DNA from: Escherichia coli
GTDB taxonomy: Bacteria; Pseudomonadota; Gammaproteobacteria; Enterobacterales; Enterobacteriaceae
Strand: one strand, 5' to 3'
Assembly (NCBI RefSeq): GCF_011045215.1
Contig: NZ_CP049201.1
Length of the DNA stretch: 64,000 nucleotides
Each line of letters starts with the position of its first letter. Within the stretch, counting starts at the first letter, position 1. Positions 17,830 to 40,449 of this stretch are shown here, piece after piece. The notes under the pieces were generated by a model that made no database searches, was not told the origin of the DNA, and saw only the letters and a program-made list of their open reading frames with translations. The position numbers and the translations under genes are program-made.

Positions 17830-17898
17830 TGGGAAAGATAAGAATAAAATCAAAGCAATAAGCAGTGTCGTGAAACCACCTTCGGGTGGTTTTTTTGT
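17775..17898 (+). repeat. attL: 124-bp direct repeat (3' 55 nt of leuZ plus 69 nt downstream including terminator hairpin)
   Basis: Identical by eye to 39473..39596; sequence diverges immediately outside both copies. Confidence 0.85.
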
Positions 17899-19435: not shown

Positions 19436-19678
19436 AGCAACCTCCCTTTAGGTGGTGCTATTCTAAATTTCATCAATGCAGATTCCAACTCCTTCCCACT
19501 TTAAGCGAAGGATGGTGATAAAGTCAGAAGATGTTAGATGAAATCTAAACGGGCGATAAGTTTTCCAATATTTGAATAACAACGTGGCAGGATTTTTGTT
19601 TATCAATTATCTTACACTTTTAAGTGTAATAAATTTGTTAGTGATGACAATATTGTGAGAGGAGATTATCAATTGAAG

Positions 19679-22539: not shown

Positions 22540-23724
22540 ATGAGTGAAACTCGTTTTCATGGTGCCCGTGTTACGGAAAATACCGACCTGGTAACAGCGA
22601 TTAACGATGTTGATTCCAGCGTTATCGGTATCGTGGCAACGGCGGATGATGCGGACGCGAAGCTGTTCCCGCTGAACAAGCCCACACTGCTGACCCGCGT
22701 CAATGACGTGCTGGGAAAATGCGGGACAACGGGGACGCTTTATCGTGCGCTTAAGGCCATCGCAGACCAGGTGAGCACAAAGGTGATCGTCGTTCGCGTG
22801 GCTGAACACAAAGAAGAAGACGGAAAAACGCAGGATCAACTGGTTATCGGTGGTTCTGAATCTGACGGCAGCTATACGGGGATGTATGCGCTGCTTGTTG
22901 CAGAGCAGGATGAAAGCATCGGATACCGTCCGCGTATTCTGGCCGCGCCGGAGCTGGACACGGAGGCGGTAACAAAATCCCTGTGCGTGATTGCGGGTAA
23001 ACTGCGCGCGTTTGTGTATGCCTCATGTCACGGCTGTAACACGATGGCTGAGGCGATTACCTACCGCCAGAAATTCAACGAACGTGAGGTGATGCTCTTA
23101 TGGCCGGACTTCATCGCCTACAACCCGAAAAGTGGCAAAAACGAAACGTTCCCCGCGCCTGCCTATGCGTGCGGCCTTCGTGCGTACATTGACCATGAGC
23201 AGGGATGGCACAAATCACTGTCCAACGTTCCGGTTAAAAATGTGCTGGGGATGTCGAGGCATGTGTTCTGGTCGTTGCAGGCCGAAGACAGCGATGCCAA
23301 CAGCCTCAACAACAAAGAAATCACGACCATTATTCGTCGCAACGGGTTCCGCTTCTGGGGCAACCGCACACCGGAAACGAACGCCTACATCTTTGAGGTG
23401 TATACCCGAACCGCACAGGTGCTGGCTGATTCAATTGCGGAAGCGCAGTTTGAAACCATCGACAGTCCATTAACACCCGCGAACGTGAAGGATGTTATCA
23501 GTGCCATCAGGGCAAAACTGGATTCGCTGGTTACTGCCGGGAAACTGATAGGCGCGGAGTGCTGGTATGACGTGGTGGATAACAGCACCACGGATTTACG
23601 TCAGGGACGTGTGCGTATTCGCTACAAATATACGCCCGTTCCGCCACTGGAAGACATGGAGCTTTACCAGACGTTTACTGATGAATACTTTGAACCCGCA
23701 TTTGCGGTGCTGGGAGGTGCCTGA
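22540..23724 (+). CDS. contractile tail sheath protein (P2 FI-like)
   Basis: 394 aa; shares FPLNKP, KLRAF, WPDF, EQGWHKSLSNV, GFRFWGNRT, YTRTAQV, YTPVPPLE with P2 FI as recalled. Confidence 0.9.
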   Translation: MSETRFHGARVTENTDLVTAINDVDSSVIGIVATADDADAKLFPLNKPTLLTRVNDVLGKCGTTGTLYRALKAIADQVSTKVIVVRVAEHKEEDGKTQDQLVIGGSESDGSYTGMYALLVAEQDESIGYRPRILAAPELDTEAVTKSLCVIAGKLRAFVYASCHGCNTMAEAITYRQKFNEREVMLLWPDFIAYNPKSGKNETFPAPAYACGLRAYIDHEQGWHKSLSNVPVKNVLGMSRHVFWSLQAEDSDANSLNNKEITTIIRRNGFRFWGNRTPETNAYIFEVYTRTAQVLADSIAEAQFETIDSPLTPANVKDVISAIRAKLDSLVTAGKLIGAECWYDVVDNSTTDLRQGRVRIRYKYTPVPPLEDMELYQTFTDEYFEPAFAVLGGA

Positions 23725-24236
23725 TGGCTGTGCCAAAACATCTTCGCTTTTTTACGCTGTTTGTGGATGGTGAAAACGAAGTGGGTAAGGTGACGTCCGT
23801 CACTCTGCCTAAGCTGACGCGCAAAACCGACAGCTACCGGGGTGGCGGCATGATGGGTGCGGTAAGTATTGATCTCGGTCTGGACGACTCCGCGCTTGAT
23901 GCGAGCTTTGTCATGGGGGGCGCAGTTCGTGAGCTGTTCCTTAAGTATGGCGGCACGATTGACGGCACGCTGCTGCGTTTTGCGGGTGAATACTACACCG
24001 ATGCAGAAAGCGACCTGTATGAAGTCGAAATGCGCGGACGTGTGACGGAAATTGATATGGGGGAAGCCAAACAGGGCGAAGCCACATCACACACTTACGC
24101 CATTAAAAACACCTACTACAAGCTGAGTGTTAACGATCGCCCGTTGTGGGAGATTGACCTGCTGAACTTCATTTACCGGAAGGACGGCAAGGACATTGTG
24201 CCCGATCGCATCCGTTCCGCGCTTGGGCTTGGCTGA
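23724..24236 (+). CDS. tail tube protein (P2 FII-like)
   Basis: 170 aa; SVTLPKLTRK...YRGGGM...LGLDD pattern as in P2 FII; directly follows FI. Confidence 0.85.
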   Translation: MAVPKHLRFFTLFVDGENEVGKVTSVTLPKLTRKTDSYRGGGMMGAVSIDLGLDDSALDASFVMGGAVRELFLKYGGTIDGTLLRFAGEYYTDAESDLYEVEMRGRVTEIDMGEAKQGEATSHTYAIKNTYYKLSVNDRPLWEIDLLNFIYRKDGKDIVPDRIRSALGLG

Positions 24237-24290
24237 TAAGTAATATGCAGGCGGCGCAGTGCGTCGCCTCTGACTGAAAGGAGTTTCCTG

Positions 24291-24656
24291 ATGAAAGAGA
24301 CGAAAAACATCGATACCGAAAACACGGTAGTTACTGACACTGTGAAAGAAACCAGTGAGCGTGGCGTAAAACTTACCCAACCAATTGAGCGAGGCGGCGA
24401 AAAAATCACGTATGTGGAGATCACCGGGGCTATTGAGCAGGCTGGATCTCTGCGAGATTTGTCGCTGTCTGATGTGCTGAATCTGAAAGCGGAATCCATG
24501 TTTACGCTGCTGTCACGCGTGACATCACCGCGACTGGATGAAGTGACGATCAAAAAAATGGCATCCCGTGACTTTATTCAGTTATGTGTGGTTGCCGTAA
24601 ATTTTTTGAGCGGTGCGGACTCTGGCGGGAAGAACGAACAGGCGACGGAAGCCTGA
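24291..24656 (+). CDS. tail assembly chaperone (P2 gpE-like)
   Basis: 121-aa ORF between tube and tape-measure genes; contains the slippery site for E' frameshifting. Confidence 0.75.
   Translation: MKETKNIDTENTVVTDTVKETSERGVKLTQPIERGGEKITYVEITGAIEQAGSLRDLSLSDVLNLKAESMFTLLSRVTSPRLDEVTIKKMASRDFIQLCVVAVNFLSGADSGGKNEQATEA
24602..24608 (+). other. predicted -1 programmed ribosomal frameshift site (TTTTTTG) producing E+E' fusion
   Basis: T6G heptamer inside gpE-like ORF; the -1 frame (ORF 24584..24820) extends to the start of the tape-measure gene, as in P2 E/E'. Confidence 0.6.
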
Positions 24657-24770
24657 TCACGGTTGTGTGCTTTGAGCACATAGAAGACTTTGTGGCGGAT
24701 ATTGCCGCCATTTTTAACTGGTCGCCCGCCGAAATCTTCATGATGACGCCCGGCGAAGTGGTTAGCTGGC

Positions 24771-27614
24771 GTGAGCGGGCGGCACTTCGCAGCGGGAATG
24801 CAGACAATGAAGACTCTTGATATCCGGGTCGCTTTCAGCGCCGTTGACAGGCTGACCCGGCCTGCCGAAAACGCCCGCCGCCTGATGGGGCAGTTTGGTG
24901 ACTCCATCCAGCGAACGCAGGGGGCGATCAAAAATCTCGAGCGTCAGGCGCGTTCATTTGAGCGCGCCCGTGACGCTGTCAGTAAAGCGGATGCTGGCAT
25001 ATTGAAAGCACGACGCCAGCTTAACGCCCTTAATCAGTTACAACGCACGGGTACAGTGCTCAGCGAAAAACAACAAAAGCTGATGCAGCAGTTAAGCACC
25101 CGGCTTGAACGCCTGAATGAATCGCGCACACGTGAAATTCAGAAAATGCGGGAGCTTGGCGGAGAGCTGAAACGCCACGGCATTTCCCTGACAGGCAGCG
25201 ATAACACCATCCAGCAGGCCATCAGACGCACCGAACAGTACAACAACCAGCTTGAACGCGAACGGCAGGCGCTTGCGCGTGTAACGCGGGCGCGTGAGCG
25301 GTATTCGCGCGCGCAGGAAACCGCGGGAAAACTGAAAACAGGTGGTGCGCTGGCAATTGGTGCGGCAGCGGCTGGCGGCTATGCTGCCGGGCGTTTTTTG
25401 CAGCCTGCGATCGGGTTCGGCAAAGAGATGTCCCGCGTTCAGGCACTGACGCGAATCGACAAAAACAGCCCGCAGTTTAAGGCGCTGCGTGAGCAGGCGT
25501 TAAAACTTGGCTCTGAAACACAGTTTACTGCGAGTGATGCCGCCAGTGGGCAGAGCTTTCTGGCAATGGCTGGTTTTACTCCGCAGTCCATTCAGGCCGC
25601 ATTGCCCGGTGTTCTTAATATGGCGCTGGCAGGTGGCGTCGAACTCGGCGAGACGGCTGATATAGGCTCCAATATCCTCACACAGTTCAACCTGACAGCC
25701 GATCAAATGGGCCGTGTTGGCGATACGCTGACAGCAGCATTCACCCGGACCAATACTGATTTACGCGCGCTGGGCGAAACCATGAAGTATACCGGTCCGG
25801 TTGCCGCAAAACTTGGTATCAGTCTTGAAGAAGCGGCAGCCATGGCCGGGATGCTTGCCAATAATGGTCTTCGTGGAAGCGATGCTGGTACGGCCATTCG
25901 CGCAAGTCTGTCCCGCCTTGCATCACCGCCAAAAGCTGCGGCTGATGCGCTGAAAGAGCTGGGGGTGTCAGTTGCTGACGCCAGAGGCAAAATGCGCCCG
26001 ATGGAGGATGTGCAGCTTGATCTCTACAAGGCGACACAAAAATACGCACAGGTGGACCAGGTTTCCTTCTTCAAGGACATCGCCGGAGAAGAGGCGTTCG
26101 TTGGTTTGCAGACGCTTGTTGCGGCGTCTGGTTCAGGAGAGCTGCAAAAACTGACCAGAGAATTGCAGGGGGCAAGGGGAGAGGCCGATCGCGTTGCAAA
26201 AGTAATGGCCGATAATCTTGATGGGGACCTGAAAAATCTCGACAGCGCATGGGAAGGTCTTCGTATTCGCATCAGTGATCTGGTTGACGGTCCGCTGCGT
26301 TCTGTCACGCAGTGGCTCACGCGGGGGCTTGAAAAAATCACCTCGCTGGCGCAGGCCCATCCGGTACTGACGCGCCAGCTACTGATAGCAGGCGGTGCGT
26401 TGCTGGCAATGACTGTAACGATTGGCTCGTTGTCGCTGGTTATTGGGGGGCTTTACGGGAAGCTGGCTACCTTGCGTCTTGGTTTTGACATTCTTACCCG
26501 GTCAATGAATGTCGTCAGGGTGTTGCCTGCGCTGTGGGGAATGGTGACGGGTTCCGTTTCTTTACTGGGAGGCGCTATCGGGGCGCTGTTCAGTCCGGTT
26601 GGTCTTATCGTGGCTGCGCTTGCCGGAGCTGCCGTTCTTATCTGGAAATACTGGGATCCCATCAGGGCATTTTTTGCAGGGGTGTTCAGCGGGATTATGG
26701 AAAGGCTGACCCCGTTGCGCGAAACCTTTGAACGGTTTGGTCCTGTTTTTGACGCAATCGGAAGCGGGATCAGCCAGGTGTTTAACTGGTTTAAATTGCT
26801 GCTGTCACCGATGGAGTCCAGCAAGGAAACGCTGGATAAATGCACCAGTGCTGGCGAGGTATTCGGTAACGTTCTTGGTGGCGCGTTACAGCTTGTTCTG
26901 ACGCCTGCAAAAATGCTGCTGGATACGCTGGCGTGGATACTTGAAAAACTCGGTGTGCTTCCGGATGAGGCGGAAAGGGCGCGTAAGAAAATCGAAGACG
27001 CACAGCGTGCGGCCATTCTTCAGGACAAGGTTGCCTTGCTTCAGGGGGATCTGGCGAAAATCAATCCGCCGAAGCCTGTGGAAAATGGCAATGGCACCGG
27101 AGGTGATAAACCCAAAGACAACAAACCGCTCACAGACAGCAATACCGGGACGCTACGCAGACTCAGCAAAATTGCTGATAACACAGGTAAGCTGGTTGAT
27201 GAGACGAAAAAACGCATTGGCCCCGGCGATATTGTCTTTAAGAACCTGCCCCGCGCACTTGCTGTTCGTGGGGAGTGGCAGGAGCGGAAGATTGCGCAGG
27301 TCAGTAAGCCTGCCCCCGCAATTAATATCACACCTGTGGTCCCGGCTCCGCTGCCTCCGACGCTGGTCCCTGTTGTTGCGGCCAGCTCCCGCCCGGTGGC
27401 GGAGTCCATACGATCTCCAGTGGCATCAGTTCCTGCAACTTCCCGTAACCGGGAGCCTGTTGCCTCCGGATTTGGCGGTGAAATTCATGTTCATCTGCAT
27501 AACGTTGTTACGCAGAATCCCCGCGAACTGGCGAAACTGGTCGGCGAAATGGTCAGTGCAGAAATGGAACGGCGCGCCCGTGCCAGGCGTGGCAGTTTTT
27601 ACGATAAAGATTGA
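24771..27614 (+). CDS. tail tape-measure protein (P2 gpT-like)
   Basis: 947-aa ORF, coiled-coil N-terminus, Gly/Ala-rich hydrophobic central segments; position after E/E'. Confidence 0.9.
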   Translation: MSGRHFAAGMQTMKTLDIRVAFSAVDRLTRPAENARRLMGQFGDSIQRTQGAIKNLERQARSFERARDAVSKADAGILKARRQLNALNQLQRTGTVLSEKQQKLMQQLSTRLERLNESRTREIQKMRELGGELKRHGISLTGSDNTIQQAIRRTEQYNNQLERERQALARVTRARERYSRAQETAGKLKTGGALAIGAAAAGGYAAGRFLQPAIGFGKEMSRVQALTRIDKNSPQFKALREQALKLGSETQFTASDAASGQSFLAMAGFTPQSIQAALPGVLNMALAGGVELGETADIGSNILTQFNLTADQMGRVGDTLTAAFTRTNTDLRALGETMKYTGPVAAKLGISLEEAAAMAGMLANNGLRGSDAGTAIRASLSRLASPPKAAADALKELGVSVADARGKMRPMEDVQLDLYKATQKYAQVDQVSFFKDIAGEEAFVGLQTLVAASGSGELQKLTRELQGARGEADRVAKVMADNLDGDLKNLDSAWEGLRIRISDLVDGPLRSVTQWLTRGLEKITSLAQAHPVLTRQLLIAGGALLAMTVTIGSLSLVIGGLYGKLATLRLGFDILTRSMNVVRVLPALWGMVTGSVSLLGGAIGALFSPVGLIVAALAGAAVLIWKYWDPIRAFFAGVFSGIMERLTPLRETFERFGPVFDAIGSGISQVFNWFKLLLSPMESSKETLDKCTSAGEVFGNVLGGALQLVLTPAKMLLDTLAWILEKLGVLPDEAERARKKIEDAQRAAILQDKVALLQGDLAKINPPKPVENGNGTGGDKPKDNKPLTDSNTGTLRRLSKIADNTGKLVDETKKRIGPGDIVFKNLPRALAVRGEWQERKIAQVSKPAPAINITPVVPAPLPPTLVPVVAASSRPVAESIRSPVASVPATSRNREPVASGFGGEIHVHLHNVVTQNPRELAKLVGEMVSAEMERRARARRGSFYDKD

Positions 27615-27620
27615 GGAGTC

Positions 27621-28115
27621 ATGGCCATGATGATGATCTATGGCATGTTTGTTTTTGAGCTGCGCACACTGCCACATCAGCAGTTACAGCAAAACAAAAG
27701 CTGGCGGCATGTGAAAAATGAACGCGTTAACCGTTCAGCAAGCTGGCAGTATATCGGTGCAGGTGATGATCGCATCGTTCTTTCCGGCGTGCTTTATCCT
27801 GAAATTACAGGTGGTGAAGTGTCGCTGTCGCTGCTGACCACGCAGGCATATACAGGGCGGCCCTGGCCTCTGATTGATGGTGTCGGGCAGATTTACGGCA
27901 TGTATGTCCTGACCGGAACGAATACGACCCGCTCCGAGTTTGATCGCTACGGTAAGGCGAAAAAAATAGAATTTTCACTGACCCTTGAACGCTGTGATGA
28001 GGATTTGCGGGAGCGCCTGCAATCCTCATCGTTCAGCGATATGCTGTCCGGCTTCAAAGATAAGGTGACATCATCCCTTAACAGCGCGGCCAGTTCAGTT
28101 AAAGGACTGTTCTGA
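27621..28115 (+). CDS. tail protein (P2 gpU-like)
   Basis: 164-aa ORF directly after tape-measure gene; MMIYGMFVFELRTLPHQQLQ... P2 U-like. Confidence 0.8.
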   Translation: MAMMMIYGMFVFELRTLPHQQLQQNKSWRHVKNERVNRSASWQYIGAGDDRIVLSGVLYPEITGGEVSLSLLTTQAYTGRPWPLIDGVGQIYGMYVLTGTNTTRSEFDRYGKAKKIEFSLTLERCDEDLRERLQSSSFSDMLSGFKDKVTSSLNSAASSVKGLF

Positions 28116-28211: not shown

Positions 28212-29450
28212 TTATAAAGAATTGCTACTTTCTAATTCTGGGTTTCTGGATCTATTTTTACAACCTAAATCCGAGTGGTAATTCGGTATATCGTTTGTCA
28301 AATCTTGTTTGATAGCATTAATTAAGATCATTATGTCGAATTTATGCATATCGTCGCCCCCTTCAGACCTTAGATGTTCGGATGTGGTGAGTTGAGTCGC
28401 TAATTTGCTGTTTGGCCCCCACACAATATTGTTTTCGAATTTTCCTTCATGCATTCTGTTATTATATATACAGTATTGTCTAATGTTTAATCCACTGGCT
28501 AAATGTACAATAGCAGTATCTACAGTTATAACAAAATCAGCATGGCGAACCAATGCAAATGAACATCCGGCATCAGAAAATGGAGATAGAGACACATTAT
28601 CCAATCCATTGTGATTAATCTGTTCTCCCATATTAAAAACTATTGTGTGATATCCCTTAAGGTTATTAAGGTAAGCTAGTACTTTGTTTATCTGTTCATC
28701 AGATAATGTTCTGCTATTCTGAGAACCATAAGGGTTAAATATAACTAATTTTTTGTTTTTCTTCCTGAATTCATTTGCAACAATATTTGCTGGTTCATAT
28801 ATTTTGTTGTCAAAATTAAGCGCTGCAGCATAATTATTATTTTTTATCTTTAGTAAAGATAAAACTTTTTTCATTCTTTCAGATGTGTGAATGGAACGAT
28901 TATCGATTATATTTGTATCAAAAATAGTTACGGCAGGATGATTAAAACAGATAGAGTGTTTAGGTCTAAGTAAATGTAGTGTTTGCAATCTGGTTATCGC
29001 TGTGTTATCAAAATTTGAGAAGTCAACAACAAGATCTACATTCAGTTTTTTTATCTTTGCTTTTAGTTCGTTAAATTTATTTTTCTCGTAAGATATAAAG
29101 GCATCCACGCCAACAATATCAGTAAAGAGGAATGATACTCTTGAAGGTGCTATCACATATACCACCATACCGGATTTTTGAAGTTGTTTAATAAACCCTG
29201 AGGTAACGATGCCGTCACCAATGGCTTGCATGTGCATGAAAATGCACACTGTTTTATAACTATCCGGCTGTAATGATGTTTTCCTTCTGTATCGCATTTT
29301 TAGAAATGCCAGTCTGGCCTTCGTCTTTATCTTTTTTGTTTTAATATTTCGCTCTCTGTTAAGCTGTTTTAATGATGAAATAACATTCATAATGGTACCC
29401 TGAAAATCCAAATCACACATGTCATCCGAAATGAGCAGGATACTATACAA
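28212..29450 (-). CDS. glycosyltransferase family 9 (LPS heptosyltransferase-like) cargo gene
   Basis: 412-aa ORF, very AT-rich; N-terminal ...MQAIGDGIVTSGFIKQL and C-terminal ...FVITVDTAIVHLASGLN resemble the GT9 motifs of WaaC/WaaF-type enzymes; start may be internal. Confidence 0.6.
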   Translation of the reverse strand: MYSILLISDDMCDLDFQGTIMNVISSLKQLNRERNIKTKKIKTKARLAFLKMRYRRKTSLQPDSYKTVCIFMHMQAIGDGIVTSGFIKQLQKSGMVVYVIAPSRVSFLFTDIVGVDAFISYEKNKFNELKAKIKKLNVDLVVDFSNFDNTAITRLQTLHLLRPKHSICFNHPAVTIFDTNIIDNRSIHTSERMKKVLSLLKIKNNNYAAALNFDNKIYEPANIVANEFRKKNKKLVIFNPYGSQNSRTLSDEQINKVLAYLNNLKGYHTIVFNMGEQINHNGLDNVSLSPFSDAGCSFALVRHADFVITVDTAIVHLASGLNIRQYCIYNNRMHEGKFENNIVWGPNSKLATQLTTSEHLRSEGGDDMHKFDIMILINAIKQDLTNDIPNYHSDLGCKNRSRNPELESSNSL

Positions 29451-29484: not shown

Positions 29485-30084
29485 TTATGCTTGTTTACTC
29501 CTTGATTCCACTGGGGAAGCAGGCCACTCAATATCCGGTGCTCTTGATGTATCAACACGGTTCAGCAGCACTCGATACTTCTTCCATGCCACCAGTAACG
29601 ATGTTTCTTCCTCTGTTGCAATATTCAAATCTACGGCATCTTGAAGTGGCGAAATATGCTCACTGGCTACCTGCATGAGGCTGTTTTTTGTTTCTTCCGC
29701 CTCCCGTATCCGGAACACTTTTTCTGCTTCTGCATCTTTCACCCACGTTGTGCCGTTCCACTTCTGAAACTCCCCTTCCGGGGATAACCAGGTGACATTT
29801 TCCGGTAATGGACCGAGTTCAGAAATAAATAACGCGCCCCCTGATGCCACGTCATAAACCGTTTTACCACGATGATCTTCAACGAGATGCCAGGACGTCT
29901 TATCACTGTTGAAAATAGCCACGAAGCCAGCTGGAATATCTGGCGGAGAAATATCAGTACTATTTGCAGGTAGACCTGTATGAGGTGGAATGTATGCATC
30001 ACCTTCACCAATAAATTCATTGGTTCCGACCAGCAGATTATAAATTTTTATGGTTCGTGGTTGTTCACTCATTCTGAATGCCAT
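29485..30084 (-). CDS. tail fibre assembly chaperone (Tfa / P2 G-like)
   Basis: 199-aa ORF immediately downstream of the tail-fibre fragment; Tfa-like C-terminus (...[22 protein letters not shown]). Confidence 0.8.
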
Positions 30085-31259
30085 TATGCAAGCCTCACAA
30101 TATAGTTAAATGCGATGTTTTTTACGGTGTTTTCCGCGTTGCCATAAGCGGCAATGGTAATGGTGTGTGTGTGCGAACCAATAGCGAGCGTATGTGTATG
30201 CGCACCTATTGCTACTGTGTGAGTATGAGCTCCTGCGCTTAATACGCGATTACTTGCTGTCTTGCTTGTGTTAGTTGCATGCATTCCACCACCGGTACCG
30301 GGAGTTTCTGCGTATGCTGAAGTATTGTTGTAAGCAAAGTTGTGTGTATGTGCTCCGGTGTTATTTGTGGATTTAGTTCCGTAATCAAACGACGATGTGG
30401 TTTTCGTCCCCAAATCCGTACTGGATGCGCTGGCGCTGTGGGTGTGCGATTTAATGCCGTCCTGTTCCTGAGACAATACGGCTCGACCACTGGCTGGTTT
30501 GCCCTTAATCGTCCAGCCACGCATATCAGGGATCACGCCTGACGGATAAGCGGCTGCAAGTTTCGGGTATGCAGATTTGTCAAAAGTCTGCCCCTGCATC
30601 AGGGCATAACCAGACGGAACGGTATCTGATGGCCACGGGATTGGTGCGCCAGGCGGATAAAACTGCTCTGATGGCGTATAGAGTGAATAAACTGTACCGT
30701 CCGTTAACCCTTCCGGCTTATTAGCAGAATATGCTGGTGACGTATGAATCGTCACGCTGGCATTACTGGTATAATCCCATTGAATATTTACACCAGTCGC
30801 ATAATTTCCGATTGCAACGTAAATATCGTAAGTATCACCAGATGTATTGACCCAGGCAAAATTTGTAAACCCTGTCGATGTGCGCTGCCATAAAGCACCA
30901 GTAATCCCCTTCGGATTACCATTACCTGCACGCAAAACAAGTTCAGATATACCTGCCTGTTGAGGTGAACCGACGTTATATCCAGCCCCACCAATCAACG
31001 TAATTGAAACAACAGAACTCGCCTGCGGCATGGTTACCGTTGCTAATTTGAACCAACCAGCACCACCGCTAAATGACATAGTTGTTGAGTTAAGCGTACC
31101 AATATCTTTCGGTGTCAGTGTTATATCCGCTGAAAGCGCCTTACCATTCACCTTACGGGCAGAAGGTACGGTCTGGCAAGAGCCGCCCGGCAAACGTCCT
31201 GGCATCAGTCTGCGCTTTACTTTAAGCGCAATGTATTGCTCGGTTGCTACATCCCGCAC
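30084..31259 (-). pseudogene. tail fibre protein, C-terminal portion only (N-terminus deleted)
   Basis: 391-aa ORF with HTHT/His-x-His repeats ([24 protein letters not shown]) typical of fibre tips; reading frame runs into the portal fragment junction at ~31236-31259. Confidence 0.7.
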
Positions 31260-32030
31260 CCGCTGCTTTCCCGGCAGGATTTCTCGGCGCTGGCGCTGGA
31301 CTGGTTTGTGTTCGGTAACGCATTCCTTGAGCTTCGGAGCAATATGCTCGGCGAACCACTTAAATTACGGCACGCACTGGCGAAATACATGCGACGCGGA
31401 AGCGATCTTGAATCATGGTGGTATGTGCAGGATGGCAAGGACGCGTTTCAGTTTCGCCCTGGCAAAGTGTGCCACCTGATGAATCCGGACATTAACCAGG
31501 AAATTTACGGCATGCCGGAATATCTTGGAGCATTACTCTCGGCCAGCCTGTCTCATTCGGCGGACATGTTCAGAAAACTGTATTACGACAACGGATCCCA
31601 CGCCGGGTGCATCATCTACATCGGTGCAGCGCAGGTAAACCGCGAAAGCATGGACTCCCTGAAAGAAACGTTACAGGGTGCGCGTGGTGGTGGTGCGTTT
31701 AAAAACGTGCTCATCCACGCGCCCAACGGGGGCAAAGAGGGGGTGCAAATTTTGCCGTTCCAGCAGATCACCGCAAAGGATGAGTTCATGAATGTTAAGG
31801 CGGCATCCCGTGATGATGTGCTGGCTGCGCACCGCGTTCCGCCGCAACTGATGGGGGCGATGCCGGGCGAAAAAAGTGCGTTTGGTGATGTGGAGAAGGC
31901 CGCGCGGGTTTACGCAATTAACGAGCTGATGCCCGTCATGGAGGCTATGAAGCACATCAATGACTGGCTTGGCGAAGAGGTGATCCGCTTTAACCCTTAC
32001 GCACTGCTGGACACCCAGCCCACATCCTGA
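31236..32030 (+). pseudogene. portal protein fragment (P2 gpQ-like, C-terminal part)
   Basis: 264-aa ORF divergent from the tail-fibre fragment; portal-like sequence (…IYGMPEYLGALLSASLSHSADMFRKLYYDNGSHAG…); shorter than P2 Q (recalled ~344 aa); P,O,N,M,L and baseplate genes absent. Confidence 0.6.
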
Positions 32031-32560
32031 CGCGCTTCGCTTGTCTGCTGCTTCGCCGGGGCATAAAAAATTTATGCCCCGACTCTCCAGCTCCTGTATC
32101 AATCAGATAATTTCACGACGTCTTCCAGCTTATTGCCATCATCGACGGTCAGGCTCTTACGCAATCCCATCGCGCTGACTGCATGTTCTCGCCGCCTCAG
32201 TGCGATTTTGACGGCCTTATCTGCCACCCCATCAAATCAAAAGCCCTCACGTCTTTTTCACGCTCAGCGTGAGAAATACAGCCATTCTGTTGTGTTGCTG
32301 CGACATCGTTCAGGGGATGCTATTTATCCCCTGAAACGCGGGCTGTTCCCCCGTCACCTGCGCGCAGAAAAAACGCGTTTTTTTGTGCACGCACGGATCC
32401 TTGACGGATCCAGCCGCCACGGGGGCCGGAAGGGCAAAAAGTCGTTCAAAAAAATTGTGCAAATTTGTGCACTATCGTGCAGTGTGCATCGTGCTGTTTT
32501 CTGCGCAAAAAACGGATGGTAAATTTGTTCGTAGCAGGGAAATTTTAATGAGCGCAAGAC

Positions 32561-33091
32561 ATGAAGAAAGATTCATATCCTTATTTGATTTGCATGACTG
32601 TTTCAGTGCTAGGGATTATTTTCCTCTTTTACTGGTGGAGGGCAGATATCTACAGGATTACATATCTTAATTCGCGTATATCCAATTATTACATCTTGTG
32701 TAGTATGGGTATGTCCTTTTTCTTCTCCTTGTTTCTGGTGAAGAGGGGGGTAGTGAAGCAAAGTGGCTGGAAAGGACTGTCGGAATACCTGAAGGTTTAT
32801 GCTGGCTCTTGCATTCTTACAGGGATATTCCTGATTATTCCTCTTATGATGGTGACTTATTTTTTACCAGGAGTAACATCATCATATGTTGCACCGTATG
32901 AGTATACATCTGGTAGTTCAAGAAGCTGTTCCGGAGCGTTTGTTGATGATCCCGAACTGCATAAAAATATTCTTATTTGCTATCCGTATGGTAACTATGA
33001 ATATGACAATATTATCTATGTTGAAAAGAAAACTAATGCATTGGGCGTTGTTGTGACGTATGCACAGACTGCACGAGACGATGCTGAATAA
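32561..33091 (+). CDS. integral membrane protein of unknown function (hotspot cargo)
   Basis: 176 aa, about 3-4 hydrophobic helices then a soluble tail; AT-rich; preceded by TGTGCA-type repeats at 32455..32494. Confidence 0.55.
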   Translation: MKKDSYPYLICMTVSVLGIIFLFYWWRADIYRITYLNSRISNYYILCSMGMSFFFSLFLVKRGVVKQSGWKGLSEYLKVYAGSCILTGIFLIIPLMMVTYFLPGVTSSYVAPYEYTSGSSRSCSGAFVDDPELHKNILICYPYGNYEYDNIIYVEKKTNALGVVVTYAQTARDDAE

Positions 33092-33282
33092 GATACTACA
33101 GATATAGTCCACTTTTTTGTTTATTTGTCGGGATAAAAACAAATTACCCCGACTCACCATGTATTAATCTTCCGCTTTAAGTTAGTATTTTAGCTGCGCT
33201 GTCCTGCTATTCAGCAAAGCGGCGTACTTTAATGCGTCCTGTGCTTTCTGGAATTTAAGTGCATAGTCAGTGGCGATTTTTT

Positions 33283-33564
33283 CTAGTTCAGCGATTCGGT
33301 TGTTTTTGGTTTCCAGCCAATCAAGTAGCGCCAATACTTCAGGATCCCGACATCCAACACTGTTACGCGTGATTTTTCATAATGTTCGTCGGCAAGAGTT
33401 CGGCCAATTTTGAAATCTCCATCATCACCATAACCGGAGCAGGCATAAACAACCTGTGCTCCAGATATTCGCTGAATTGACATTTCCTCGCCGCAAATAG
33501 GGCATTTCGGTACTGGCACAGGTGAATAACGTTCACGTAATGCCTGATAGTTGATTTCGCTCAT
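33283..33564 (-). CDS. small zinc-ribbon protein (possibly frameshifted)
   Basis: MSEINYQALRERYSPVPVPKCPICGEEM...YACSGYGDD; an alternative frame downstream (to ~33182) reads as a coherent helical tail (DPEVLALLDWLETKNNRIAELEKIATDYALKFQKAQDALKY). Confidence 0.45.
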   Translation of the reverse strand: MSEINYQALRERYSPVPVPKCPICGEEMSIQRISGAQVVYACSGYGDDGDFKIGRTLADEHYEKSRVTVLDVGILKYWRYLIGWKPKTTESLN

Positions 33565-33627: not shown

Positions 33628-33929
33628 TTATTCAGGAAATAACGCCCGGATATTTCCGGCCATCTGACTGGTTATCTGTGCGGTTGATACTGGCTGTGAT
33701 GCGGGGCGTTCTGTCCTGGTTTGTGTCACTGATAACGCTTCATCATCAGCCCATGCAGCTAGTCGGTAAGCCTCTGCCGGATTCATTTTCAGAAGTGCCA
33801 GCCCGGCCAGAAAAGCCACACGTTGGCCGCTTTTGCGGGCTTCTGGTGTAAGGCTGTCCAGCCAGGCGCATGCTTCGCCTTCGTTCTTGACGGCGGCGGG
33901 CTTCAGATAGAAACTTATCCGTCTGGTTG
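33628..33929 (-). CDS. ParR/StbB-like partition adaptor protein
   Basis: From MTTPTRRISFYLKPAA...LDSLTPEARKSGQRVAFLAGLALL...NIRALFPE; resembles plasmid R1 ParR (RRTIAFKLNP...LDSIPQGERSRLNRAALTAGLAL...LRSLFPKE) from memory; lies directly downstream of the parM-like gene. Confidence 0.65.
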
Positions 33930-33943
33930 GTGTCGTCATTGGT

Positions 33944-34893
33944 TTACTCCTTGTCCATTGCGTACAGCCCATTAACCAGAGCAAACTGTGGCACCCCGTC
34001 CGCGATGAAAGTCGCATTAACTCCGCAGGCTTCGCGGATAGCGGGTGCCACAATCTCCGCCCCGCCACCGACAACCATCACCCGCCCGTAACCCGAAAAA
34101 ACCGCCAGCGCGCGGATCACGCGTTGTTTCAGTGTTTCTTCCTTTTCACGAATAACCGCCATCAGGCTGGCGTAATGCGCGTCATTGTGGATGTGTTGGC
34201 GCAACCAGGCTTCATCATGGCGATGTTCGATAATGGTATTGGCGATGTGGTGACTGGTACGCATACCGTTAGCGGCCATCACCGACAGCACGGCACCGGC
34301 CATCAGGGAGACGCCTACGTGTGGATCGCAAAACACCTGGCTGATACCTGCCAGTTGCCCCTGAACCTTTGCCACATCCAGCGTGGTTCCGCCTAAATCC
34401 ACAATCAGCAGGGATTCAAACGGACTCATGTCAGCCAGTGCTTTAAAGCCAGCCGGAATGGATTCAGGCATAACCCGCACGTTACGGATAGTGAATGCTT
34501 CGCCGTTCTGGTACTCCACCGGGCGCATAACGTTCGCTTTTTTGCGGTTGATGTTGGCCATGTCCGGCTGTGCGTTTGTGTCGAAATACTCGCTCAGTGG
34601 CAGGGTGACAACCACATCCACCTCCTGTGGCGTGATGCCTGATTTGACCAGCGTGTGATGAATGGCGATTACATTCACATCGCTGTACTGGTATTGCGTG
34701 TCGGTCGTCTGGACAAAGCGATCGCTGACCGGATCAAAACCATAGCGCACGCCATCAAGCATGTAGTTCGCGGGCTGCATGCCACCGAACGGCGCAGATC
34801 ATTCCGACTTGAAGCTGTTCGGGCTGATGGCGTTGCGGCGTTCGCCATTCTCAGTCCATGCCAGCTTGATGTTGGTGGAGCCGTCGTCGATAC
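33944..34893 (-). pseudogene. ParM/StbA-like actin-type ATPase with in-frame TGA nonsense codon
   Basis: MKICIDDGSTNIKLAWTENGERRNAISPNSFKSE-TGA(34799-34801)-SAPFGGMQPANY...; remainder matches ParM (VMPESIPAGF, IVDLGGTTLD, VMVVGGGAE); the stop replaces the Trp of R1 ParM KREWAVSFG. Confidence 0.75.
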
Positions 34894-34932
34894 AAATTTT
34901 CATGTCGCTTTTCCTTATGTTGATTAATTAAT

Positions 34933-35044
34933 CGTTTACGGGATTCTGAAATCCCGTTTTTGCCTGTTTTGTGTGCGCTTCATATATCGCGGCGCGTTTT
35001 TTGCTCATTTACGGGATTTGTGAATCCCGTTTCTGTCTGTTTTT
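34933..35044. repeat. two ~36-bp direct repeats, each with an internal dyad (acgggatt..aatcccgt), upstream of the parM-like gene
   Basis: tttacgggattctgaaatcccgtttttgcctgtttt (34933..34968) and tttacgggatttgtgaatcccgtttctgtctgtttt (35008..35044); candidate parC-like centromere/operator, or a remnant of a replication origin near the end of gene A. Confidence 0.5.
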
Positions 35045-36533
35045 TGTTTCCACTGGTCAGGCCACCCCGCAGCAGGTCTGCTTTGCGGCGGGCACGTTCA
35101 GTGGTTTCACTGATTCTCTGTGCGTGCTCTGCGTCGCGGATGGCGCGCAGCATGTCAGAAAGCACGGTAACGGGGGTTTTCATGGTGTTCTGGTCCTGCT
35201 GAAGTGTGGATGCCAGACGTGCGGCGGCTTCGAGGTCTGATGCCCCCAGCTGTTCCAGATAGCTGGCGACCGGGTTATGGCGGATCTCCGTGCTGCTTAC
35301 GCCGTGATTACGGCTCAGGCGCTGCCAGAGCTGCGTGATTCGGCTGTCCGGGCGGGTATCCGGTTTGCGTACAATTTCAAATCCCTGCGGTGCAATGATG
35401 CTGCCGTCAACGTACAGGCTGCCGCCCCGTAACAGGTGCTGCATCTGCTGTTCACCGATATGCATGCCGAGAGATTCGGCAGATTCCCGCCATTCTTTAG
35501 CGAGTAATTCGTGGTTATCAGGCAAAGGCCGCTGCTGTTTGCGGCTCTGTGTCCAGCTCTGCATTTCATCACTGCTGTTTTTTGCCTGTTTGTCACGCAG
35601 CGAACGCATCAGCGCCCGGCGTTCGTGCCGTTTCAGTGAGCGCACCCATTCATCCACATCAACGCCGTCAGGAAGCTGCGGCCACGGTGCTGGCCGTTCT
35701 TCCGGCTGTTCTGTCCCGTTGTTGTCCGTTTCCTGTACACGGGGACAGTTATTGCCACGAGTCCAAGGGGCGGCAGGGCCGCTCTGAAGGTCAAAACCAT
35801 TTTCGCGGGAGCTGTCTTCCGCTTCCGGTTTGCGTCTTACCAGCTTCCAGTTATCCGGATGCGTGCATACGCGGGAAGACTCCCCGATGAGCGGCGACCA
35901 GATCCCGTAAATCTGTACACTCTGCTCACCGTAATCGTTCAGTTCATCTGCGAGGTCGTAGGCGGTGCGAATCAGGTAGTCTTTGCGTGGAACAAGCACG
36001 CCACCCTGTTTTTCAATGTAGGTGGCAAAACACCCGGCATCAGCGGCAGCGAGTACCGCATCCATTGCGTCATCCTTCAGCCGTTGCGGGCCTTCCGGGT
36101 TGCGTGCCATCTGGCTGGCAAGGCGGCGCAGTTCACGCCACACCTGACGGGAGGGGATACCAAAGAACTGGAACTGGCGGACCCGGTGAAGGCGCGCCCA
36201 GCCGATGGCGCGTTCCACGCTCTCGGCCATTGATTTTCCGGTTTCGTGGTCAACGCGTGGCTTGCCCGTTTTCGGGTCGATGCCATCCACGGCGCGGCTG
36301 TCCAGGTTCTTTCCGATGTAGGTGGCGATGTAGCTGGTTGGCGTGCCTTTTGAGCCGTCGACGTACTCCGCCTTAAAACGCGGAGTTATGTCATCGCCCA
36401 GCTCGTGGCGGTCTTCCTGAATGGCAATATCGCAGACGTGGGACACGATGGTTTCAATCTCGTCCGGATGTGCAAAGACCATCATATGCCAGTGCACAGT
36501 GCCGTCATGGTGAGGCTCCAGCGGTGTATTCAC
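34980..36533 (-). pseudogene. replication initiation endonuclease gpA-like, N-terminally truncated
   Basis: 517-aa ORF begins within the region matching P2 A (LEPHHDGTVHWHMMVF vs P2 VEPHHDGTPHWHMMVF as recalled); the N-terminal part of a full-length A protein plus cox/B equivalents are missing. Confidence 0.7.
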
Positions 36534-36686
36534 TCAGCGAGGCACACCCGCCAGCAGTGTGATGCGCCAGCATTGCCGCAAATACGGAGGCCGGGGAGTC
36601 GTAATACGCCAGCAGTGATTCGCCATGCGGTGTCAGGCAGCGCAACGCCAGCCCGTGTGGTGTTAAGTCCACGCGGTAGCAGTCGT

Positions 36687-36836
36687 CTACTGTGAAATAA
36701 AGGGTGAGCGTTGTTCTTTAGCTGCCATTTCATCAATGACGGCTCGCTCTTCGAGGGACAGCCGAAGTGCCAGTCTTGGACCTGTGGCGGTGTTACGCGG
36801 AATGCGTGATCTGGTATCGTGAAGAACTTGTTTCAT
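36687..36836 (-). CDS. small ribbon-helix-helix-like ORF (49 aa), uncertain
   Basis: Manual translation MKQVLHDTRSRIPRNTATGPRLALRLSLEERAVIDEMAAKEQRSPFISQ: beta-strand/helix pattern of RHH proteins; lies between A fragment and the divergent repressor gene. Confidence 0.3.
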   Translation of the reverse strand: MKQVLHDTRSRIPRNTATGPRLALRLSLEERAVIDEMAAKEQRSPFISQ

Positions 36837-36911
36837 AGTGGTATATTGTGATCATCTAATAGCTCATGAAATCATTTTGGTATCAAAAAAGATACCTGTC
36901 AAGGTTTTTGT

Positions 36912-37316
36912 ATGAAAAATGATATTGGTCAGCGGTTGCGTGAGGAAAGGGAAAGATTGGGGCTTAGTCAAGTTGCTATGAGCGACATTGGTGGAGTCAA
37001 AAAGCTAACTCAGCTTAGATATGAGAAAGGAGATAGCTTTCCTGATGCTGCGTATTTGGCAGCGCTGTCTCGTTTTGGCCTTGATGTTCAGTATGTTGTG
37101 TTGGGAATTCACTCACCTGAAACTTATAACGATGATGAGCAGGAGTTGATTACTCGCTTTCGAGCAGCTTCGTTAGATGTAAAAAACGCGGTGATCGGGG
37201 CTTTAAAAGGTGCGGGCAGTGAAAAGGAAACTCAGCCATCAGGGCGTGAGTTAAATATTTCTGGTGGTAATAACCGTATCGCTGGTCGTGACTATAACGA
37301 AACTAAGGGTAGGTGA
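36912..37316 (+). CDS. XRE-family HTH repressor (P2 C-like immunity repressor) with C-terminal tail
   Basis: IGQRLREERERLGLSQVAMSDIGGVKKLTQLRYEKGDSFPDAAYLAALSRFGLD HTH; divergent from A, co-directional with int as for P2 C; C-terminal ...SGGNNRIAGRDYNE motif repeated in the next protein. Confidence 0.7.
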   Translation: MKNDIGQRLREERERLGLSQVAMSDIGGVKKLTQLRYEKGDSFPDAAYLAALSRFGLDVQYVVLGIHSPETYNDDEQELITRFRAASLDVKNAVIGALKGAGSEKETQPSGRELNISGGNNRIAGRDYNETKGR

Positions 37317-37331
37317 TAGTAGGGAGGTGAC

Positions 37332-37982
37332 ATGGCCGTCAACTCAAACGGTTCAAACAATCGCGTTGCTGGGCGTGATTTTCACGAAAAGAATATTCAG
37401 ATAGAGCGATATGATGGTTCTCATACCGTCAATATCGCAATCCCTTCGAATAATGATGATGACGCTCGCCCTTTGCTTAAGGCACAGCGTAAGGAGCTAA
37501 ATAGCTTGGTTGCTGCTATTGCAGAAGCTAGCAATACTGAAGCGTTTATTATTTGGCAAAAAGTACATGCGGAGATTGGTGTAGCTGGTATTGATGATAT
37601 GACAATAAATCAATATAAAACAGCGGAGAGTTTTCTGCATGCAATGCTTGAGCGATGTAAAGATCATGATGCCTGTAAGACTCTTGTAAGTTTATTACTA
37701 CGTAACAGTGAAGACTGTGGACTTCGACAAAAACTTCTGCGGTATTGCCATATCAATTTCGGTACAGGACGTTTAAACGATCTTACTCGTTCTCAGTTAC
37801 AGTCTGCATTGTCGTGGTTAGAGCAACAATCGGTATCAAGCCACTCAGAGAATTCGACCTTACCAGAAGTTCGCCTTCGTGCTTCAGAATTAATCCGATT
37901 TTATCCAAAAGAAATAATATTCTTTATCTGCGTAGGGGTTTTGGTAGGCGGAGCCATTTCTAGGATGTTTTTTAATTTGTAA
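37332..37982 (+). CDS. tail-anchored membrane protein of unknown function (lysogeny-operon cargo)
   Basis: 216 aa; N-terminal SNGSNNRVAGRDFHE repeat shared with the upstream repressor; single C-terminal TM helix (IIFFICVGVLVGGAISRMFF); strong SD (GGAGGTGA) after three consecutive in-frame stops. Confidence 0.6.
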   Translation: MAVNSNGSNNRVAGRDFHEKNIQIERYDGSHTVNIAIPSNNDDDARPLLKAQRKELNSLVAAIAEASNTEAFIIWQKVHAEIGVAGIDDMTINQYKTAESFLHAMLERCKDHDACKTLVSLLLRNSEDCGLRQKLLRYCHINFGTGRLNDLTRSQLQSALSWLEQQSVSSHSENSTLPEVRLRASELIRFYPKEIIFFICVGVLVGGAISRMFFNL

Positions 37983-38011
37983 TCTTACTTGAGCTAAATT
38001 GAGGCAATGAC

Positions 38012-38359
38012 ATGAAAGTAAAAAAGGTTCAACTATTAGTTGCTTTTTTATCTATGTTTTCTTTTTCCGCCGTCGCAATGCCTTTTAAAACTATTGAACG
38101 TGAGAGTTTCAATGGAGTATGGCCATTTAATACAGATGAGGTTCAATTGCAGTGTCTTGATGGTAATCCTTATGTGATGAATTTTGACGATAATAAGTTA
38201 TATGCGCTTACAGGTTTGGCTCGAATAAAAGGTAAAACATTTGGTGCGTTACCGTTAGATAACAATAATCCATTTTGGCTAGATAATGATGCCGCCCCAG
38301 GGTTAAAAAAGAATCTGGGGGACGTCACTAAGGCTGCATTTGATTTATGTGATAAGTAA
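38012..38359 (+). CDS. YebY-like (DUF2511) secreted/periplasmic protein
   Basis: 115 aa; signal peptide MKVKKVQLLVAFLSMFSFSAVA; ...WPFNTDEVQLQC... and C-terminal ...LC resemble E. coli YebY as recalled. Confidence 0.55.
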   Translation: MKVKKVQLLVAFLSMFSFSAVAMPFKTIERESFNGVWPFNTDEVQLQCLDGNPYVMNFDDNKLYALTGLARIKGKTFGALPLDNNNPFWLDNDAAPGLKKNLGDVTKAAFDLCDK

Positions 38360-38364
38360 CAAAA

Positions 38365-39366
38365 ATGTCGGTTCGTAAAACTCCATCAGGTAAATGGCTT
38401 TGCGAATGTTATCCCTACGGAGCATCGGGAAAACGCATTCGTAAACAGTTTGCGACAAAAAGTGAGGCGCTCTCTTATGAGCGCCGTTTAATGAATAGTA
38501 GAGTTGGAGACGAGTTTCAAGATGGTTCTGGTCCTCGTCTTTCTGAGTTGATTGCTCGTTGGTTTGAGATGTACGGAAAAACCTTGTCCTCTGGTGCAGA
38601 GCGCAAAGTCAAACTTGAGGCGATTTGTTCTAGGCTGGGAGATCCATTTGCTTCTCAGTTTGACAAAAATATGTTTGCTACTTATCGGGAAAGAAGGCTA
38701 TCAGGAGAATGGAATCCCAAGGGGAAGAAAAAACTTAGTGAAGCAACCGTTAATCGCGAGCAGTCATATCTACATGCTGTTTTTGCCGAACTGAAGCGCC
38801 TTGGGGAGTGGTCTGGTGAAAACCCCCTGACTGGAATTCGCAAGTTTCGTGAGGAAGAAAAGGAGCTGGCGTTTCTGTATGTAGATGAGATTGAACGCCT
38901 TTTGATTGCGTGTGATGATTCACGGAATAAAGATTTGGGGGTTGTTGTCCGTATTGGGCTTGCGACTGGTGCTCGGTGGAGTGAAGCAGAAGGATTAAAG
39001 CAATCTCAAGTACTGCCCGGTCGAATCACATTTGTTAAAACTAAAGGAAAGAAGAACCGCACTGTACCGATTTCACCTCAATTGCAGGCTATGCTTCCTA
39101 AAAAACGAGGAGCGCTATTTTCACCATGTTATGAGGCTTTTGACGCTGCAATTAAGAGAGCGAAGATAGAGCTCCCTGATGGGCAATTAACTCATGTGCT
39201 ACGTCACACGTTTGCTAGTCATTTTATGATGCGGGGCGGAAATATTCTTGTGTTGCAAAAAATACTGGGGCATAGCGATATAAAAATGACTATGCGTTAT
39301 GCGCATTTTGCTCCGGGTCATTTAGAGGCTGCTGTTGAATTAAACCCTTTTGACAATAGAGGGTAA
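38365..39366 (+). CDS. int: phage tyrosine integrase
   Basis: 333 aa; C-terminal catalytic region HVLRHTFASHFMMRGGNILVLQKILGHSDIKMTMRYAHF (R...HxxR...Y); ~110 bp from attR. Confidence 0.9.
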   Translation: MSVRKTPSGKWLCECYPYGASGKRIRKQFATKSEALSYERRLMNSRVGDEFQDGSGPRLSELIARWFEMYGKTLSSGAERKVKLEAICSRLGDPFASQFDKNMFATYRERRLSGEWNPKGKKKLSEATVNREQSYLHAVFAELKRLGEWSGENPLTGIRKFREEEKELAFLYVDEIERLLIACDDSRNKDLGVVVRIGLATGARWSEAEGLKQSQVLPGRITFVKTKGKKNRTVPISPQLQAMLPKKRGALFSPCYEAFDAAIKRAKIELPDGQLTHVLRHTFASHFMMRGGNILVLQKILGHSDIKMTMRYAHFAPGHLEAAVELNPFDNRG

Positions 39367-39472: not shown

Positions 39473-39596
39473 TTTAAAATCCCTCGGCGTTCGCGCTGTG
39501 CGGGTTCAAGTCCCGCTCCGGGTACCATGGGAAAGATAAGAATAAAATCAAAGCAATAAGCAGTGTCGTGAAACCACCTTCGGGTGGTTTTTTTGT
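39473..39596 (+). repeat. attR: second copy of the 124-bp repeat (partial leuZ 3' end 39473..39527 plus downstream terminator)
   Basis: Identical to 17775..17898. Confidence 0.85.
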
Positions 39597-40388: not shown

Positions 40389-40449
40389 GAAGTCAAATTG
40401 GGTGTCAGCGTTAATTCTGGCACCCAATAAGGAATTTGAGGCTATCTAA

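Follow-up and report, generated by a model that had tools for sequence, protein, structure and literature searches.

A defective P88-like prophage at leuZ of Escherichia coli and the recurrent fibre-gene endpoint of its largest deletion

The window analysed here, a 64,000-nt stretch of Escherichia coli DNA, carries a 21.6-kb element (17899-39472; an intact relative at the same site measures ~37 kb) inserted at the tRNA-Leu gene leuZ between 124-bp att repeats. It is very probably a defective P88-like prophage (Peduoviridae, Xuanwuvirus) produced by a large deletion from the tail fibre gene H to the portal gene Q and by two small deletions, the large one, as proposed below, having begun at a fixed end in the fibre gene. 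As a deletion scar, the H-Q junction is ordinary, the routine outcome of prophage decay. The unexpected part of the finding, and one that is not ordinary, is that the H-side endpoint recurs with nucleotide precision: the sequence …CAGAAGG-TA-CC (hereafter the H-site) is common to at least eight junctions, all within 3 nt and with different partners, and the remnants that bear them are both P2-like and lambdoid.

The element lies between the tRNA genes glyW-cysT-leuZ (17528-17829) and the genes yecA and tyrP (39723-41661), and by DNA comparison the flanks of the window are 99% identical to E. coli genomes. The left att repeat covers the 3' part of leuZ (17743-17829) and the leuZ terminator. Pfam and PHROG searches recognised P2-family genes for D, sheath, tube, E, tape measure, U and tfa, with further matches to tail-fibre and portal fragments, ParM/StbB, a fragment of A, an HTH repressor and a tyrosine integrase; when tblastn is included, the P2-type families represented are FI, FII, E, T, U, D, ogr, G, H, Q and A. 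The nearest phages by DNA search were P88 and its relatives (Xuanwuvirus), with 93-97% identity (93.5-97% over the three retained blocks). P2-type gene families, P88-type gene order and identity, and a tyrosine integrase accompanied by att repeats all identify the element as a P88-like prophage, and the gene set of an inducible prophage is incomplete, with Q, H and A all truncated in tblastn comparison with the intact relative. Considered as a possible P4-type satellite, the element still has cos-side DNA; the non-coding stretch 3' of Q is, by position and homology, probably the cos region, and a search for the P2 cos 19-mer found it absent.

Two intact prophages served as reference maps. The first, of ~37 kb in strain SMN152SH1, is also located at leuZ and shares the integrase, DUF2511 protein, membrane protein and repressor with the window (96-99% protein identity); these four, the repressor being of the HTH type and the tyrosine integrase lying at 38365-39366, make up the immunity and integration module. 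The sheath and tube proteins are 100% identical to those of SMN152SH1 (tblastn). The second, in strain M19 at flk-pdxB (L008 coordinates below), has the same module of a glycosyltransferase family 9 (GT9) gene, tfa and H as the window, the two being 98.8% identical across 3 kb. The GT9 moron occupies the position that in P88 holds the DNA invertase and alternative fibre genes. The earlier note had proposed alignment to P2-like genomes, and alignment to intact relatives did map the deletion endpoints, but the right reference is P88-like and P2 was dropped, since the opposed orientation of sheath-U and G-H is native to P88-like phages. The sheath-tube-E-T-U block of P88 is natively opposed to the G-H…O block, after which come P-Q on the other strand, so that the strand layout of the window needs no inversion. 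The features of the element are collected in the table.

Table. Features of the leuZ element in window coordinates
Feature	Position	Strand	Description and evidence
attL	17775-17898	+	124-bp direct repeat, exact copy of 39473-39596
hok/gef-type toxin gene	18847-18984	-	Full length; 46/46 aa identical to SMN152SH1 (tblastn)
ogr late activator	19178-19435	-	Full length; 96.5% identical over 1-86 to SMN152SH1
ogr-D hotspot moron, putative	19655-21077	+	Two overlapping ORFs, 346 + 192 aa
gpD-like tail/baseplate hub gene	21273-22382	-	~369 open codons; Pfam Phage_GPD, tblastn
Tail block: sheath FI, tube FII, E/E', tape measure T, U	22540-28115	+	Full-length tblastn, Pfam
GT9 moron	28212-29390	-	Weak Pfam Glyco_transf_9; phrog_36326; GT9 annotation in relatives
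Tail fibre assembly gene G/tfa	29485-30084	-	Full length; Pfam Caudo_TAP; tblastn 1-191
H'	30084-31169	-	Last 1,086 nt of H, codons 343-703; collinear with M19 H to L008 23020
Junction 1, GGTAC	31165-31169		Scar of 11,374-bp deletion (estimated size); three-way alignments
Recurrent crossover TA	31167-31168		Inside junction 1 GGTAC
Q'	31170-32030	+	Portal gene without first 181 nt; blastn to P88, SMN152SH1, M19
Non-coding stretch 3' of Q	32031-32482		P88-like homology; candidate cos region
Segment not in reference prophages	32483-33194	+	ORF 32561-33091 (phrog_1416)
ead/Ea22-like remnant	33194-33564	-	Frameshifted, truncated
stbB	33631-33939	-	Intact
parM	33944-34903	-	In-frame stop at codon 35 (34799-34801)
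A', replication endonuclease remnant	34980-36523	-	~433 N-terminal codons gone
Junction 2	36519-36520		2-bp exact overlap CA; ~1.36-kb deletion scar
Island from ORF upstream of A	about 36519-36706	-	~188 bp
Junction 3	36705-36706		2-bp exact overlap TG; ~2.06-kb deletion scar
Immunity and integration module	36912-39366	+	96-99% identical to SMN152SH1; all genes full length
attR	39473-39596	+	Second 124-bp repeat copy

At junction 1 two divergent ORFs meet, one with a tail-fibre C-terminal part (30084-31259, minus strand; Pfam Collar; PHROG match 438-794 of 794) and one with a portal C-terminal part (31236-32030, plus strand; Pfam Phage_portal; PHROG match 82-342 of 344), a divergent fusion of fragments that the earlier note had described and that these matches bear out. 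That note had placed the junction at ~31236-31259, where the ORFs overlap; the DNA joint lies 67-90 nt to the left. Tail-fibre DNA homology, both to M19 H and to a lambdoid stf gene, extends to 31169, and portal homology to P88, SMN152SH1 and M19 begins at 31165, so the two share GGTAC, and the 24-nt ORF overlap arises because each ORF stays open beyond the true joint. Residues 1-32 of the H ORF are encoded by antisense portal DNA, and on these alignments the two ORFs are artefacts, pseudogene fragments that owe their form to read-through of the joint. QIF16227.1 is the 373-aa, ATG-start form of the H' junction ORF, which is 391 aa in its longer version. Mapped to M19, in which H is the CDS at L008 21935-24046 (2,112 nt), H is cut after nt 1026 (it joins from nt ~1027) and Q before nt 182; Q' is missing only 60 codons, and over residues 62-348 its product matches an intact portal at 100% identity. 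The window is collinear with M19 on both sides of a deletion of 11,374 bp with a 5-bp overlap, though the references are relatives and not the direct ancestor, so that deletion size and microhomology length are estimates; an overlap of at least 5 bp was computed to have a probability of ~0.005 at a random joint.

Lost with this deletion were the 5' part of H, I, J, W, V, S, R, the lysis cassette, X, L, M, N, O, P and the 5' part of Q, in agreement with the proposal that one deletion had removed the Q 5' part, head genes, lysis and baseplate genes and the H 5' part. The sequence passes straight from H to Q, with no IS, IS terminal repeat or foreign DNA at the junction, and the microhomology check that had been suggested returned the GGTAC shared by H and Q; short overlaps of the kind associated with illegitimate deletion occur at junctions 1 (GGTAC), 2 (CA) and 3 (TG) alike. 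The joint of H to Q nt 182 was absent among 5,426 complete E. coli genomes and among GTDB species representatives, and is thus specific to the strain or to a narrow lineage. It has to be considered whether the junction ORFs are instead true full-length genes of other families, or the joint an assembly artefact, given that both ORFs are long, with possible start codons, and that QIF16227.1 is annotated as a tail fibre protein. They match only the C-terminal parts of their families, however, the first 32 codons of the H ORF being antisense portal, and the joint sits within a source contig of 5.41 Mb (5,409,430 bp), with similar joints present in independent complete genomes. Such a reading is extremely improbable, and alignment with the intact H and Q genes refutes it, showing fragments where the earlier note had allowed for full-length genes of other families.

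The right-hand side of the element has a more complicated structure than the single second deletion that had been envisaged. The cox side and the N-terminus of A are indeed lost, but by two deletions (~1.36 and ~2.06 kb) rather than one, and the stretch 36534-36911, taken as a single remnant, instead has to be read as two junctions around a 188-bp island. Homology of A to SMN152SH1 ends at 36523, confirming that ~433 N-terminal codons are missing, and A' matches only 245-321 of the 321 positions of the Pfam Phage_GPA profile. Beyond the island, homology restarts at 36698 within a small ORF adjoining the repressor. The deletion at junction 2 took the 5' part of A and the 3' end of the ORF that lies upstream of it, and the one at junction 3 took a cox-like gene and five small early genes; between them the two removed most of that upstream ORF, for an early-gene loss of ~3.4 kb in total.

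By tblastn the window has no matches for P, O, N, M, L, X, holin, endolysin, R, S, V, W, J or I. With the head genes absent, the element cannot build capsids, as the earlier note had stated. Read in its sequence, A' keeps the HUH motif (HWH) and the YxxxY tyrosines and is without a native start or promoter; the truncated A and the deleted early operon argue against autonomous replication. Of the supposedly intact cargo and tail genes, sheath, tube, tape measure and GT9 are indeed whole, as are hok, ogr, D, E/E', U, tfa, stbB, the repressor module and the integrase, but parM has a nonsense codon and ead a frameshift, point decay that is in progress, and the ogr-D moron is split. Relatives of that moron in a 90% cluster are 465-489 aa long, versus the split ORFs of the window, where the gene is probably frameshifted; it had no match in Pfam or PADLOC, and a PADLOC scan of the cargo ORFs returned no matches at all. 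The decay of the element looks recent. An R-type tailocin was also considered and rejected: baseplate, fibre N-terminus and lysis genes are deleted and only sheath, tube, E, T, U, D and tfa are left, so the element is not a domesticated tail.

The recurrence of the H endpoint emerged from comparison with other remnants; the 40 nt to the left of the H-site read …CCTTACCATTCACCTTACGGGCAGAAGG. In ET791, at another att site, H ends at the equivalent of window position 31166 and is joined to Q nt 561. Five draft-assembly loci taken from the 90%-identity protein cluster of the window H' ORF (L014, L016, L017, L018 and L019) end H at L008 23017-23022 in the M19 mapping and have four further partners: H's own nt 9 (L019), the A 3' end (L018), the ORF upstream of A (L016 and L017) and a cox-like gene, with an in-frame cox-H' fusion ORF (L014). 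Because a 90% protein cluster favours ORFs of similar length, the observable window for the endpoints of these loci is ~80 nt, a bias that narrows the coincidence but does not explain it away. An unbiased test used a 241-nt query centred on the H-site against all complete E. coli genomes and found 1,500 matching records, ~106 of them partial. Five partial matches were sampled, and two stop exactly at the H-site (L024 and L025), both in lambdoid remnants: one joins the H-site to the 5' end of lom, with ~2.2 kb lost, and the other, in Qin, joins it to the tail gene K, with ~7.4 kb lost. A third has an IS903B insertion 14 bp from the H-site. The stfQ-nohA locus of K-12 Qin was examined as a further case and set aside, its truncation being at a different position.

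These joints have separate histories. ET791, L016-L019 and strain 165, the last with an intact H, have one and the same H' haplotype; that of L014 differs by 1 nt from the intact gene of VG35A2; and that of the window forms a lineage of its own, 7-14 nt from all others, with VG35A2 as its nearest intact relative (8 differences). Intact-H relatives are thus available for two of the junction-bearing lineages (strain 165 and VG35A2), and the pattern implies that intact fibres gave rise to the joints in three lineages or more, eight distinct partners being involved. Common inheritance of the window and ET791 joints was rejected, star-like SNP counts near the joint (12, 14 and 16) and the haplotype matrix both separating the two.

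The joints also share an architecture. The retained side is always the 3' part of the fibre gene and the partner always lies on its 5' side; the microhomologies are GGTA(C), GGTA, GTA, TA(C) and TA, all adjoining the same TA, and the partner has a TA in matching register in nearly all cases (CA in ET791). The 13.3-kb H-to-Q interval of M19 contains only seven copies of GGTAC, four of which have been used as endpoints (23016, 24038, 33963 and 34390). Taken as a whole, the shared H endpoint suggests that DNA is broken or joined there by a site-specific process acting on one side only; none of the literature searched describes a hot spot of such a kind. Neither a promoter nor a DNA hairpin was found at the H-site (fold z-scores -0.7 and -0.9), and a pseudo-origin for the A protein was rejected, there being no H-site-like sequence within the A gene.

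Junction 1 formed by a single illegitimate recombination between H (after nt ~1026) and Q (from nt 182) via GGTAC. In the mechanism proposed here, the big deletion would have started not at a random place but at a fixed and reused DNA end in the fibre gene. That end would be top strand …CAGAAGGTA-3', within the palindrome GGTACC, and would then have been joined rightwards, by template switching or end joining, to a site with terminal microhomology (GGTA/C in Q); candidate sources of the end are a nick, a recombinase or a stall. A fixed …AAGGTA-3' end, microhomology of 0-4 nt and a one-sided, variable and distant partner are consistent with a site-specific nick or stall that is resolved by template switching or end joining, and also with a recombinase whose strand exchange with secondary sites takes place at a 2-nt TA core. 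It is a tentative but real possibility that the H-site is a novel, nucleotide-precise break or join site at which some activity repeatedly makes a fixed 3' end that is joined to variable sites at a distance of 1-20 kb, to the 5' side of the fibre gene. Candidates for that activity, acting on a fibre module that P2-like and lambdoid prophages share, would be a nickase, a recombinase or a replication block.

Random decay would be one alternative, with an ordinary microhomology deletion at junction 1 and an H endpoint that matches others by chance and through selection for tfa and GT9. Junctions 2 and 3 of the same element do resemble everyday deletions across 2-bp microhomologies, H is broken off at other points in XJ34, FLI21 and H1 and is interrupted by an IS in A8, and selection could account for the constant retention of the sheath-to-tfa block. 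An explanation of this type is nonetheless unlikely when the joins to eight different partners all fall inside one 3-nt interval, across P2-like and lambdoid elements and at least three haplotype lineages, and with a partner that is antisense or out of frame selection is unable to fix the endpoint to the nucleotide. Conservative recombination by a serine-type recombinase, cutting with a 2-nt stagger at the TA of GG-TA-CC, using secondary TA sites and excising a circle, is a minor possibility: all of the junctions can be written left-TA-right, joints away from the H-site also cross at TA (in XJ34 and within the stf gene of L025), and in P88 as in lambdoid prophages, recombinase genes of the Pin family are neighbours of these fibre modules. 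The H-site is, however, unlike cix, gix, hix or pix, with no such site at the H-site or elsewhere in the window and no match to the P88 cix within 3 mismatches, and no paired copy of the H-site was found near pin or tfa. Further, elements of the GT9 type carry no invertase, the reciprocal class in which the right flank is kept was not seen among the sampled matches, and wild-type invertases disfavour deletion. The cix site of P88 itself lies elsewhere in H.

Insertion sequences offer another route, in which each lineage once had an IS at the H-site that was removed, with one flank, by transposase and IEE-type strand switching. Excision promoted by IEE is microhomology-based and can also produce larger flanking deletions (10.1101/2023.06.07.543989), and several deletions in or near H are bounded by IS elements (IS1203/IS629 in Sp13, IS903B in FLI21, IS1 in H1 and an IS3-family element in A8). 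Against this, none of the genomes inspected has an IS at the H-site, the closest being the IS903B 14 bp away, and the same insertion would be needed in at least three lineages as well as in lambdoid fibres, which makes a past IS decidedly unlikely. Self-targeting by a type I-E CRISPR system next to the H-site, with one-directional degradation by Cas3 and end joining, would suit deletions that run in one direction, and a bottom-strand AAG PAM does lie 32 nt to the right of the H-site such that the PAM-distal end of the protospacer falls on the site (L008 23015-23049). A suitably spaced PAM is expected by chance ~15% of the time, however, and a repeat-spacer-repeat query of complete E. coli genomes found no type I-E array with that spacer, leaving CRISPR self-targeting very improbable.

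Prophage decay is usually modelled as random deletions that are then filtered by selection. If the proposal of a recurrent break or join site at the H-site is true, its repeated use in two unrelated families of phage, fixed to the nucleotide and with many partners, would make part of this decay mechanistically directed, and there would be a directed route for losing morphogenesis genes and keeping the receptor-binding module, tfa and adjacent morons. It would further provide a cloneable sequence of 30-60 bp as a handle on the responsible activity. The remnants also indicate which parts are retained in the host, the sheath-to-U block, a moron and tfa surviving in all those examined.

Deletions with a fixed endpoint are known from lambda, where they are promoted by Int at attP, and from replication nicks of the M13 or pC194 type. 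There, as at the H-site, one endpoint is fixed to the nucleotide and the other is variable with short similarity, though at the H-site no att-, ori- or recombinase-like site was recognised and the likeness is one of pattern only. The intact Xuanwuvirus members P88, SMN152SH1 and M19 share the gene order of the window and 93-99% DNA identity in all retained modules, in comparison with which the window is without 11.4 kb of late genes and ~3.4 kb of early ones, and has cargo inactivated by point changes. Other GT9 remnants (ET791, XJ34, FLI21, H1 and L014-L019) have the same left arm as the window (D to U, GT9, tfa, H') and most share its H endpoint, but the right-hand partner differs each time, as does the att site often, and the H-to-Q182 joint of the window occurs in none of them.

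The closest parallel at the same location is Sp13/CP-933T of E. coli O157:H7, which has the same leuZ-yecA site and the same module of integrase, repressor and DUF2511 protein. Sp13 and the window both keep sheath, tube, E, T, U, a moron and tfa, and both have lost head, baseplate and lysis genes. The deletion in Sp13 is bounded by IS1203/IS629, unlike the IS-free joint of the window, and it took all of H and Q together with the cos side, where the window keeps H' and Q'; in addition, A and the early operon are intact in Sp13 and A is truncated in the window, and the moron is an O-acetyltransferase in Sp13 instead of GT9. Sp13 is described as short of most morphogenetic genes, yet still able to excise and replicate (PMC2669165). 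The element in the window thus adds a further case of a P88-like prophage that has decayed at leuZ, with the O157 prophage Sp13/CP-933T as its counterpart.

The glycosyltransferase family 9 (GT9) moron, a cargo gene of the decayed P88-like prophage in the window, is also present at loci L001, L003, L008, L011–L014, and L016–L023. Retention of the moron together with the tail fibre assembly gene (tfa) and the block of tail genes from sheath to U in all of the decayed relatives examined suggests that it is the selected cargo of these elements. The promoter of the GT9 moron was not located, and the gap between the moron and tfa is only 95 nt.

Location of the cargo, variable-slot and hub genes in the window and its relatives
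Feature	Location	Strand	Context
GT9 moron	window 28212–29390	(-)	slot holds a DNA invertase and alternative fibre genes in phage P88
Overlapping ORF pair, 346 aa and 192 aa	window 19655–21077		ogr-D variable slot
176-aa ORF, phrog_1416	within window 32483–33194		variable slot with cos/Q on one side and ead-stbB on the other
gpD as annotated in relatives	L008 13124–13977; equivalents in L001, L003, L007		

A widespread GT9-carrying element, of the type found in strain 165 (L020; see also L019), has a separate deletion that fuses the capsid gene N to the tail gene I (L020 6549–7523), with the tail fibre gene H still full length. The haplotype of H' (the 3' part of H retained in remnants) in strain 165 is common to ET791 and L016–L019, and its GT9-tfa sequence is also common to ET791 and L019. 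Decay at the fibre site, the recurrent endpoint in H, therefore seems to occur within already defective prophages, i.e., in the chromosome. The remnant in XJ34 has an 11.9-kb H-to-P deletion (L003 14208–14212) with endpoints that differ from the fibre site (22062 and 33965 in L008, the locus of the intact prophage in strain M19). Its right partner is again a GGTAC, with the crossover at TA. All three deletions, those of the window, ET791, and XJ34, measure 11.4–11.9 kb.

The end of the element nearest attL carries a hok/gef-type toxin gene (window 18847–18984), whose protein is 100% identical to its counterpart in intact relatives. Post-segregational killing from this position could partly account for the left arm never being lost. 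Codon 35 of parM (window 34799–34801) is an in-frame stop, with the remainder 97.8% identical and the adjoining stbB intact. The tail hub gene D is a single open ORF of ~369 codons in the window (21273–22382) and gpD of P88 has 366 aa, while in apparently intact relatives RefSeq annotates a 266-aa 'VgrG/Pvc8' protein and a small pseudogene. The shorter gpD of these relatives represents either a disruption or a mis-called start.

Beyond the element, uvrC, pgsA, and tRNAs were identified in the left flank (window 1–17000 side) by collinear DNA matches to SMN152SH1, which has an intact prophage at the same leuZ site, and relatives, and yecA, tyrP, ftnA, and araFGH in the right flank (window 42000–64000 side) from annotations of relatives.

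Window positions 32483–33194 are absent from P88, SMN152SH1, and M19. The phrog_1416 ORF located there, named a membrane or transmembrane protein by some sources, is widespread in E. coli, with 172 members in its cluster and about 1,000 contigs. Neither ORF of the ogr-D slot had a match in Pfam or PADLOC. The 90% cluster to which they belong contains relatives of 465–489 aa, so the pair is probably one frameshifted gene of unassigned function. In SMN152SH1 and O157, this slot is instead filled by a 'YecA family protein'.
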